Below, piece after piece: positions 12,997 to 15,099 of a stretch of DNA of 64,000 nt. The DNA is from an uncultured Candidatus Peribacteria bacterium (GTDB taxonomy: Bacteria; Patescibacteriota; Gracilibacteria; BD1-5; UBA6164), in NCBI GenBank assembly GCA_964404065.1, contig CAYOIP010000001.1, positions 21,721 through 85,720 of the forward strand. The letters are read 5' to 3'. Position 1 is the first letter of the stretch; each line of letters opens with the position of its first letter. The notes beneath the pieces were generated by a model, which was not told the origin of the DNA, did no database searches, and was given only the letters and a program-made list of their open reading frames with translations. Made by a program: the position numbers and the translations under genes.

Positions 12997-13461
12997 TTAC
13001 AACTTAAATATTTTTATAAGTTTGTCTGTAAAACTTAATTCTCAGTTTTCATCTTCTACTATGAAATTTGGTAAAATTCATTTTAAATTTAAAGCAATAT
13101 TATTATCAATAGTTAAATCTAAAAAGTTAATTCATTTTTTTACCAAAGCAAGTCTTAAGATAACGGCATTTTCTCAATCGTAAATCAAAGTATAAGATGA
13201 AATTTTTGAAAAATCATAAAATGAATTATTTACTTTTATTCATAAATTTGTGATATAAACTTGAGTAGTTTCTTCTGAATTATTTTCTAAAAAAAAGCTA
13301 ACTCAAGTAATCAAAATAATTAAAAAACTCATCACATATTGGCGAGTCAAAAATCACCAAACAACAAGTCAAATTATCACAGATAAAGCTATTATATACC
13401 ACAAATTTCATCTATTTTTGTCATTTGAAAAACTCCAATTATAAATTATTTCATTGTCCAT
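12997..13461 (-). CDS. hypothetical membrane protein (154 aa)
   Basis: MDNEIIYNWSFSNDKNRGNLWYIIALSVIIGLVVWGFL...; two hydrophobic spans. The ATG lies 2 nt after the upstream stop. Confidence 0.5.
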
Positions 13462-13463
13462 TT

Positions 13464-13817
13464 TTATGAAAAATTATCAATTATTAATTTAAATATAATC
13501 CAACTCAAACTTGATAAAACAAGTCAGGCAAGAGCATAAAATATAGTCTTTTTTCATTCAGATTTTTCTCATTCAAGTCATCAAAGAGATATTCTAAAGG
13601 CTCAAATAATTATAAAAATTATTGAAATAGTTGCAGCAAATCACATCAGATAATCAATAGCATAGCTTATAATTTTTGGAATATCTCAAGTGTGAATATC
13701 TCAAGTTCTAATTTTTGTTTGATCAACTCACCCTAATATTCCAGCATCTGTTGCATAGATTTTTGAATGAAGTGAAAAAAGTAGTGGAATTATAAAATAT
13801 TTTATTTTATTTATCAT
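13464..13817 (-). CDS. T4SS-pilin-like small secreted/membrane protein (VirB2/TrbC-like)
   Basis: 117 aa. Signal peptide, then two hydrophobic helices flanking a GGLEGEKSEGKK loop. Same layout as the 48758-49132 paralog. Confidence 0.5.
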
Positions 13818-13841
13818 AATTTCAAGTTATCATTTAAATTT

Positions 13842-13879
13842 CCCCTCTACCTCAAGGGAGAGGGGTTAGGGGTGAGGGC
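13842..13879. repeat. GC-rich palindromic element, single-unit copy C
   Basis: cccctctacctcaagggagaggggttaggggtgagggc. Its terminal ...GGGCTATAT supplies the TAG stop of the upstream gene. Flanked by TTAAATT on both sides. Confidence 0.85.
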
Positions 13880-14586
13880 TATATTAAATTATAATTATCA
13901 ATTCAAGTTTTTAAGTTTGTAAAACTATCTAAACGAGGATTATAATATTCGCTTAAAAATTTTACAAGTTCAGTTTTATCAAGTTCAGAAGCTTTTATTC
14001 AAATAGATTCCAAACTAGTTTTTATAGTATTTATTCTAGTAGCAAGAGCTTTTTTGTTTTTATTTAAATTTTTTATTTGGTTTTTTATTCATATCAAATC
14101 ATCTTGTCCGTTTATTGATGCCCAGAAGTTTTTAAATTTCCCCACAAAACTTAGATCTCTAACAGAATTATCTCACTCATTATCTACAGCAACAACTATA
14201 TAAAAATCTTTTTTCATGATTTGAGCAACTTCAATTAATTTTTTTAAATATTCTATATATTCATAAGTTTGATTTTGTAGTAGAGAATTTGTTTGATTTA
14301 CAGCCAGTGAATTTAATTTGTTTAGGTATGTTTCTATATCAAGTTTTGTAGAACGAATCATGATTTGAATAGGGAAATCAATAGAGTTTAGAAATCTTTG
14401 AAAACTCATAATAATAGCATCTTGTTCTTCAATACTTTTAAGTAAAAAGTTTATAGTTGAACATTTTAATACTACTCTTGCTGAAAAATCTTTCATGATA
14501 ATTACATTGTCCCTTATTTGGGAAAAAGGTAAATATCTTTGTGTTGAAACATCTGAAATTTGTTTTTTTGCTTGATTTACTGGCAT
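13879..14586 (-). CDS. VirB4/PrgJ-like N-terminal fragment (235 aa, no ATPase domain)
   Basis: STQRYLPFSQIRDNVIIMKDFSARVVLKCSTINFLLKSIEEQDAIIMSFQRFLNSIDFPIQIMIRSTKLDIETYL resembles the N-terminal region of Gram-positive/CPR VirB4 ATPases. It ends ...NLI-TAG at the repeat edge. Confidence 0.45.
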
Positions 14587-14615
14587 AAGTTTGTTTTGTT
14601 GGTTATTGTATAATT

Positions 14616-14686
14616 CCCCCCACCTAGCATCCCCCTGGCAGGGGAGGAATTTTCCCCTCTTGCTAGGGAGGGGTTAGGGGAGGGGC
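14616..14686. repeat. GC-rich palindromic element, double-arm copy D
   Basis: ccccccacctagcatccccctggcaggggagg-aatttt-cccctcttgctagggaggggttaggggaggggc. It supplies the TAG stop of the PrgI-like gene. Confidence 0.9.
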
Positions 14687-15099
14687 TATATTTTATGTAA
14701 ATTATCTTCTAAAGTCTTTATTTTTTCCATTTTATCTTTGAAATCAATATTTTCTTCTTTTTTTGTATCTTGAACAATTATTCAAATATCAAGAGGAGAA
14801 AAACTATCAATTCAAGCTTTCCAAGTTCTTTCTTTAAAATTTATATTAAATCTTAAAAGAGCTAATATAAATGGTAAAAAAGTCATTTCATATTGTTTAA
14901 AAAGAGCAATAAACAAAGTTATTCAAAATATAATTATTGCAGGAATTGCAGCAACTTCACCTGAAGAATATTTTTCTAGTGAAACAAAAACTCCATAAGC
15001 AATTGCTCATCATCACATAATTATCATAAGTTGTTTTAAACTTAATCAAAGCAAAATTGGATCTTCATTTTCTATCTGAACAGGAATTTTGTATTGCAT
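14686..15099 (-). CDS. PrgI-family (VirB3-like) T4SS membrane protein
   Basis: MQYKIPVQIENEDPILLGLSLKQLMIIMGGGAIAYGVF... is the typical PrgI N-terminus. 137 aa. Confidence 0.55.

Follow-up and report, generated by a model that had tools for sequence, protein, structure and literature searches.

The closest described counterparts of the gene studied here are the TrsD/TraD proteins of the staphylococcal and enterococcal plasmids pGO1, pSK41, and pIP501 (MPF_FATA), which are about 230 amino acids long, are remotely homologous to the N-terminal part of VirB4, and carry no NTPase motifs. On pSK41, trsC (VirB3-like), trsD (227 aa, "TrsD/TraD family"), and trsE (672 aa, VirB4-like) are consecutive. 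TrsD homologues are the commonest part of the type IV secretion system (T4SS) in Patescibacteria, with 2,272 recorded, and they mostly lie near virB4, Gracilibacteria being a notable exception in which VirB3 homologues also are rarely near virB4 (PMC12102498; Microb Genom 2025;11:001409). In "Ca. Southlakia epibionticum," moreover, the homologue has proved essential (PMC12102498). The free-standing TrsD arrangement of Patescibacteria and Gracilibacteria is therefore already published. The closest described counterparts of the repeats that adjoin the gene are BoxC/PIT/TM_ECO, intrastrand-triplex repeats of E. coli and other bacteria with the BoxC/TM_ECO consensus CCCTCNCCC-N3-6-GGGNGAGGG-N3-GGGNGAGGG (Holder et al., NAR 2015; PMC4666352).

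The window, a stretch of 64,000 nucleotides, contains a 235-aa gene that is very probably a native, conserved TrsD-type part of the Patescibacteria (CPR) type IV secretion-like system, with an ATPase encoded separately and repeats that were inserted later at ancestral TAA stop codons. The gene lies between a PrgI/VirB3-like gene upstream and a T4SS pilin gene downstream, and the features of the cluster are as follows.

14686..15099, minus strand: PrgI/VirB3-like membrane protein gene, 137 aa, TAG stop at 14686-14688; matches Pfam PrgI
14614..14687 (core 14616-14685): repeat copy C, an inverted doublet of a BoxC-like GC-rich element, located in the PrgI-TrsD spacer
13879..14586, minus strand: TrsD-like gene, 235 aa, free-standing homologue of the VirB4 N-terminal domain, TAG stop at 13879-13881
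13840..13880 (core 13842-13878): repeat copy D, a singlet made of a pyrimidine block, a TCAA loop, a purine block, TTA, and a purine block
13464..13817, minus strand: T4SS pilin (VirB2-like) gene, 117 aa, N-terminal hydrophobic leader; matches Pfam T4SS_pilin
12997..13461, minus strand: small membrane protein gene, 154 aa, weak DUF5673 match; syntenic with the T4SS cluster

The T4SS genes here are open only when TGA is read as sense. With table 11 the ORFs came out fragmented, and table 4 (TGA as tryptophan) was outscored on Pfam models by table 25 (TGA as glycine): the ribonucleotide reductase barrel scored 490 bits with glycine versus 416 with tryptophan, and AAA_10 scored 40.2 versus 25.5 bits. 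The genome has a GC content of 24.5%, and close homologues are named "Candidatus Gracilibacteria bacterium" in public records. Pfam PrgI matched the 137-aa protein with an E value of 1.9e-10 (41.6 bits against a cutoff of 27). The 117-aa protein matched Pfam T4SS_pilin at 2e-6 (28.2 bits against a cutoff of 26.6) and the NCBIfam Mbov_0395 pilin-like model at 1e-5, and the relative G006 has a pilin gene in the same place. G006 also has an ORF of the same size where the 154-aa gene sits, the product of which matched Pfam DUF5673 at 1e-4, below the cutoff.

What the 235-aa protein is was addressed by sequence profiles and by predicted fold. The NCBIfam VirB4 model NF045975 matched the protein at model positions 98 to 238 of 894 only (E = 1e-13), NF045971 matched at positions 22 to 127 of 752, and Pfam gave only a weak TraC match. 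Neither GxxxxGK[ST] nor a P-loop NTPase domain was found in the product by sequence, Pfam, or NCBIfam, and the initial annotation was right in describing a 235-aa product with a VirB4-type N-terminal region and no Walker motifs. An AF2 model built with 61 homologues had a pLDDT of 85.1, and the best 14 Foldseek matches in the PDB were all chains of R388 TrwK/VirB4 (PDB 7O42, 7O43, 7O41, 8RTB, and 8RTD; probability, 0.97 to 1.00), after which the matches dropped sharply to unrelated folds, leaving no other convincing one. The query-normalized TM score was about 0.44 at 12 to 15% identity, the aligned VirB4 residues not being given in the output, and in R388 the domain is part of the ATPase, unlike the separate polypeptide found here. 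A family profile of the 235-aa protein retrieved nothing relevant from PDB sequences, and the match came from the fold search alone.

In its length (about 220 to 240 aa), its VirB4 N-terminal homology, and its lack of Walker motifs, the protein agrees with the TrsD/TraD family. The 61-sequence family profile aligned with pSK41 TrsD end to end over 180 columns by hhalign (probability, 84.7%; E = 6.7e-6); sequence likeness to pSK41 TrsD was seen at this profile level only. No TrsD/TraD-family model appeared for the protein in an NCBIfam scan at an E value of ≤1, and the name TrsD rests on the one profile-to-sequence hhalign comparison (85%) together with the published CONJScan-based assignment. 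As in pGO1 and pSK41, the TrsD-like gene directly follows a VirB3-like gene (trsC/PrgI). A place beside both a VirB3-like gene and the ATPase gene, which is typical of the TrsD family, is only half kept: PrgI is adjacent and the ATPase gene is not, in agreement with the exception recorded for Gracilibacteria. The VirB2-like pilin gene follows the TrsD-like gene at the point where pSK41 has trsE. Of the family members with N-terminal extensions of about 110 to 220 aa, six were compared with Pfam and none of the six gave a PrgI domain, and thus there is no Rosetta-stone support for a PrgI-TrsD pair. We note that tblastn with the 235-aa protein matched unannotated "hypothetical" ORFs on Bacillus, Paenibacillus, Geobacillus, and haloarchaeal plasmids, with E values down to 3e-12. 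On at least two Bacillus plasmids the match overlaps or abuts an annotated DUF87 ATPase gene, an adjacency consistent with an origin of TrsD/TrsE in MPF_FATA.

The P-loop NTPase domain of VirB4/TraC conjugative ATPases, missing from the 235-aa product, is present in a gene on another contig of the genome, the initial annotation having advised a search of the rest of the genome for it.

G000:C50:478-2391, minus strand: TrsE/VirB4-type ATPase gene, complete ORF, Walker A sequence AKSGGGKS

The C50 product is 637 aa long from the first start codon (TTG) and 625 aa from the first ATG, and it carries P-loop_TraG, AAA_10, and DUF87 domains. It matched NF045971, the CD1110-type VirB4 model, at positions 179 to 734 of 752 (348.5 bits; cutoff, 325) and pSK41 TrsE with an E value of 1e-34 over 590 aa. 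Like TrsE, it is a partner ATPase of about 630 to 670 aa without the VirB4 N-terminal part. The 235-aa protein and the C50 ATPase show no similarity to one another, and we conclude that they are complementary rather than paralogous. Moreover, since VirB4 models match the one N-terminally and the other at positions 179 to 734, the two tile a full-length VirB4 colinearly. All 41 relatives in the order encode the ATPase in its own frame of about 590 to 685 aa, unlinked to the short gene, and in the closed relatives it lies 127 to 165 kb from the TrsD-like gene.

The surroundings of the ATPase gene gave further observations. Directly upstream of it on C50 (L001:2458-4048, minus strand) is a bAvd-like four-helix-bundle gene (Pfam bAvd, E = 4.9e-7, below the cutoff), and also upstream is an ORF that is open at the locus end and matches MutS domain I (E = 5.6e-14). 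The two may belong to a diversity-generating retroelement or a similar context, no reverse transcriptase domain having been confirmed. In the closed relative G015, the ATPase match falls in two overlapping frames (G015:C1:1041226-1043135; residues 3 to 203 and 201 to 624); a frameshift, decay to a pseudogene, or an error in sequencing could account for this.

The repeats flanking the TrsD-like gene belong to a family with a unit of about 37 nucleotides, in which a C-rich block is followed by a short loop and then by two G-rich blocks with TTA or CTA between them (GGGGTGAGG). The family occurs as singlets, such as copy D, and as inverted doublets, such as copy C. The core was counted 39 times in this genome and 0 times in the reversed control. 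Each of nine congeners has 0 to 1 cores, and other genera of the family are patchy, with, for example, 22 in G015, the relative with the most copies. Copies C and D are absent from these sites in 12 relatives, in which the PrgI-TrsD spacers are about 13 to 50 nucleotides long. From the copy number pattern and the empty orthologous sites, we conclude that the element is mobile and recently expanding. Across the whole genome, 62 of 110 family-like GC-rich islands fall inside long ORFs (table 25), which suggests that many repeat copies are translated in frame.

The likeness to BoxC/PIT/TM_ECO lies in the three blocks, one C-rich and, after a loop, two of the GGGNGAGGG type separated by TTA, as judged by eye from 38 copies, and in copies that are short, numerous, mostly intergenic, and tied to variable loci. 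Each block here is one G:C pair longer, however, and thus the strict E. coli BoxC pattern fits only with mismatches: it gave 0 exact matches and 23 matches at ≤2 mismatches, versus 0 in the control. The copies here also differ in occurring as inverted doublets and inside ORFs, in a genome of low GC content with TGA read as glycine. A second likeness is to the REP/REPIN-RAYT systems, as the copies are imperfect palindromes found as singlets and inverted doublets, many lie ≤15 nucleotides from a stop codon, and the genome encodes two HUH/Y1 transposase-like ORFs.

G000:C34:344-877, minus strand: HUH/Y1 transposase-like ORF, HUH motif, weak Pfam Y1_Tnp match
G000:C25:8424-9005, plus strand: HUH/Y1 transposase-like ORF, HUH motif, weak Pfam Y1_Tnp match

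The two ORFs are 177 to 193 aa long, carry HUH-type motifs (FVIMPNHFHGII and FVIMPNHVHFII), and are RAYT/IS200-like. In contrast to REP/REPIN-RAYT systems, they have no flanking repeats, and no GC islands were found within about 1 kb of either one. Homologues are patchy (11 of 41 relatives), and their presence follows the repeat number only loosely. We therefore did not retain the RAYT-like ORFs as mobilizers.

How the repeats meet the stop codons is best read on the mRNA strand, on which both genes end ATA TAG followed by CCC(C)TC and are fused to the GC-rich repeat. The plus strand reads CTA at 14686-14688 and 13879-13881, confirming the two minus-strand TAG stops at the repeats that the initial annotation had described. 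The terminal C-T of copy C (AG on the mRNA strand) overlaps the PrgI-like stop codon, and the terminal C-T of copy D overlaps the TrsD-like one. Before the next start codon, 27 nucleotides are left after copy C and 24 after copy D (pilin start, 13817), the latter in accord with the earlier figure of about 25. The sequence GGGCTATAT, which the initial annotation had given as the conserved end of copies D and C, occurs in both copies but is not a conserved end of the family. Its ATAT is the genes' own 3' sequence, as repeat-free relatives read ATA TAA, and across 38 copies only A-G-C next to CCTCACCCC on the C-rich strand rises above background (63%, 42%, and 71% versus 38%, 12%, and 12%). The enrichment of A, G, and C also is seen in copies far from stops, and the T preceding the terminal AGC is at background.

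TAG accounts for 146 of the 1,089 stops in the genome (13%), and the stops abutted by repeats are TAG in 5 of 10 cases and TAA in the other 5 (binomial P of ~0.006 versus 13%). In repeat-free relatives, the five genes with TAG stops here pooled to TAA at 47 of 50 gene ends, as follows.

TrsD-like gene: TAA in 10 of 12 repeat-free relatives, TAG in G008 and G023
PrgI-like gene: TAA in 11 of 12 repeat-free relatives, TAG in G003
FtsK-like gene on C53: TAA in 9 of 9 repeat-free relatives
MscS-like gene on C36: TAA in 9 of 9 repeat-free relatives
RNase P protein gene on C7: TAA in 8 of 8 repeat-free relatives

The nearest relative is about 86% identical in protein, so the empty site is not alignable base for base and no exact insertion point or target site duplication was defined. 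Downstream of the MscS-like gene, in the place of the GC-rich repeat, the congeners G009, G006, G001, and G008 (L061 to L064) have a different small hairpin, ACTCCTTTC...AAAAGGAG plus a T run, with the look of an ordinary terminator.

Whether the repeats made the short gene, its stop codon, or an mRNA feature has to be weighed against their being later arrivals at genes that were already complete. The initial annotation had left two choices, that the element truncated virB4 or that the lineage keeps a free-standing N-terminal domain. A split of a full-length virB4 by a repeat, leaving a 235-aa stump, is suggested by the gene terminating exactly at a repeat and by the GC islands of this genome that fall within long ORFs, but it is almost certainly wrong. 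In 12 genomes of the same genus or family that lack both repeats, the gene order is kept, and both the PrgI-like and the TrsD-like gene have their stop at the codon found here, save that G010 ends the TrsD-like gene one codon later. In the order sample (41 relatives in 23 genera and 3 families), 41 of 41 have one homologue in a stop-bounded frame of 226 to 309 aa at 43 to 86% identity. In the class, 144 of 151 genomes (108 of 113 genera) gave a match, nearly always of about 220 to 320 aa, and lineages that have no in-frame TGA are among those with a match. Of 1,953 cluster representatives drawn from 1.8 billion proteins, the best 150 are all 86 to 452 aa long, with no full-length VirB4 among them. 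Moreover, the ATPase gene begins with a start codon of its own and is distant in the closed relatives, and no repeat was found at the 5' end of the C50 ATPase gene. As judged from sequence comparison, truncation of virB4 is refuted by the repeat-free orthologues, the very condition that the initial annotation had set against it, and the second choice proves correct: the domain is the published TrsD homologue of the Patescibacteria T4SS with an unlinked ATPase. As a separate observation, the TrsD-like match in the relative G167 (G167:C3:133816-134460) falls in an open frame of 506 aa, roughly double the usual length, perhaps through a fusion or because a stop was missed.

If the gene is native, its TAG stop still might owe nothing to the repeat, and the repeats might have landed beside preexisting TAG codons or stops that mutated independently. 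We consider such coincidence improbable. TAG is not rare in this genome, it occurs without a repeat at 3 of 24 TrsD-like and PrgI-like gene ends, five of the repeat-abutted stops are TAA, and the T ahead of the AGC of the element is not enriched. Against this, half of the abutted stops are TAG where 13% is expected, A, G, and C are enriched at element ends distant from any stop, and for all five TAG genes the congeners are repeat free and bear TAA, at 47 of 50 gene ends. For any single gene, a TAG could still have arisen by chance, to judge from the sequences. An action on the mRNA for which the hairpins are kept, such as protection of the 3' end, control of the relative amounts of PrgI, TrsD, and pilin made from one transcript, or slowed termination, is a doubtful alternative. 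On the mRNA strand, the copy C doublet folds into a hairpin of -38.6 kcal/mol that starts 1 to 2 nucleotides past the PrgI-like stop, and the copy D singlet folds into one of -15.1 kcal/mol that starts 13 nucleotides past the TrsD-like stop. Over the whole genome, 22 of the 38 stop-facing offsets measure ≤15 nucleotides, exact abutment is 3 to 4 times the spacer-conditioned expectation (4 versus 1.13, P = 0.03; 7 versus 2.4, P = 0.01), and the 24 to 27 or so nucleotides upstream of the next gene are always intact. REP hairpins within 15 nucleotides of E. coli stop codons reportedly slow termination. No U tract follows either hairpin, however; AAAUUUAAAUG and AAUUAUACAA come next, and thus the hairpins are not canonical intrinsic (Rho-independent) terminators. 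At all five sites the congeners are without an element, and therefore the repeats are not required for the operon. In addition, BoxC/PIT elements showed neither promoter nor terminator activity in E. coli (PMC4666352), and in spacers of 13 to 50 nucleotides, selection against hitting the start region of the next gene can by itself yield clustering on the stop side. That clustering might come from selection where spacers are very short, from a preferred target, or from a role in the mRNA, and any effect of the hairpins on expression would be hypothetical.

On the simplest reading, the element went in at the TAA or inside it, and its AG preserved an in-frame stop. The initial annotation had held that the repeats supply the TAG stops; that claim is supported more narrowly, in that the position of each stop is ancestral and the element appears to contribute the G or AG that turns TAA into TAG. 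In outline, a BoxC-like element has expanded in this genome, with insertions that very probably postdate the split from the sequenced congeners. Some insertions would have occurred exactly at ancestral TAA stops, presumably at a point within the codon, and the terminal AG(C) of the element would have kept the stop as T+AG or TA+G. Protein length is unchanged, TAG stands where relatives have TAA, and a stable hairpin begins 1 to 13 nucleotides past each stop. We further propose, tentatively, that the family may integrate into the stop codon itself, after the T or TA of TAA, with its own AG regenerating the stop. If so, such a stop-preserving mode would let a selfish hairpin colonize operons with spacers of about 13 to 50 nucleotides and would leave a genome-wide TAA-to-TAG footprint. 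The footprint of BoxC-like repeats is only a modestly new point.

How the TrsD-like protein acts may be suggested by its predicted fold. It would be a small, soluble protein with the fold of the VirB4 N-terminal domain, supplying in trans the role that the fused domain has in VirB4. As such, it might anchor the ATPase hexamer to VirB3 and to the membrane platform where pilus and secretion assembly takes place. In this conserved split, the VirB3-docking module and the motor are naturally separate, which could serve for studies of VirB4 recruitment. For annotation, short "TraC family" or VirB4-N-like ORFs of CPR bacteria should be called TrsD-like rather than truncated virB4, and a Gracilibacteria T4SS should count as complete although the ATPase is encoded far away. 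Finally, in a compact AT-rich genome, mobile GC-rich hairpins appear to settle exactly on stop codons, leaving a TAG signature and the genes undamaged.
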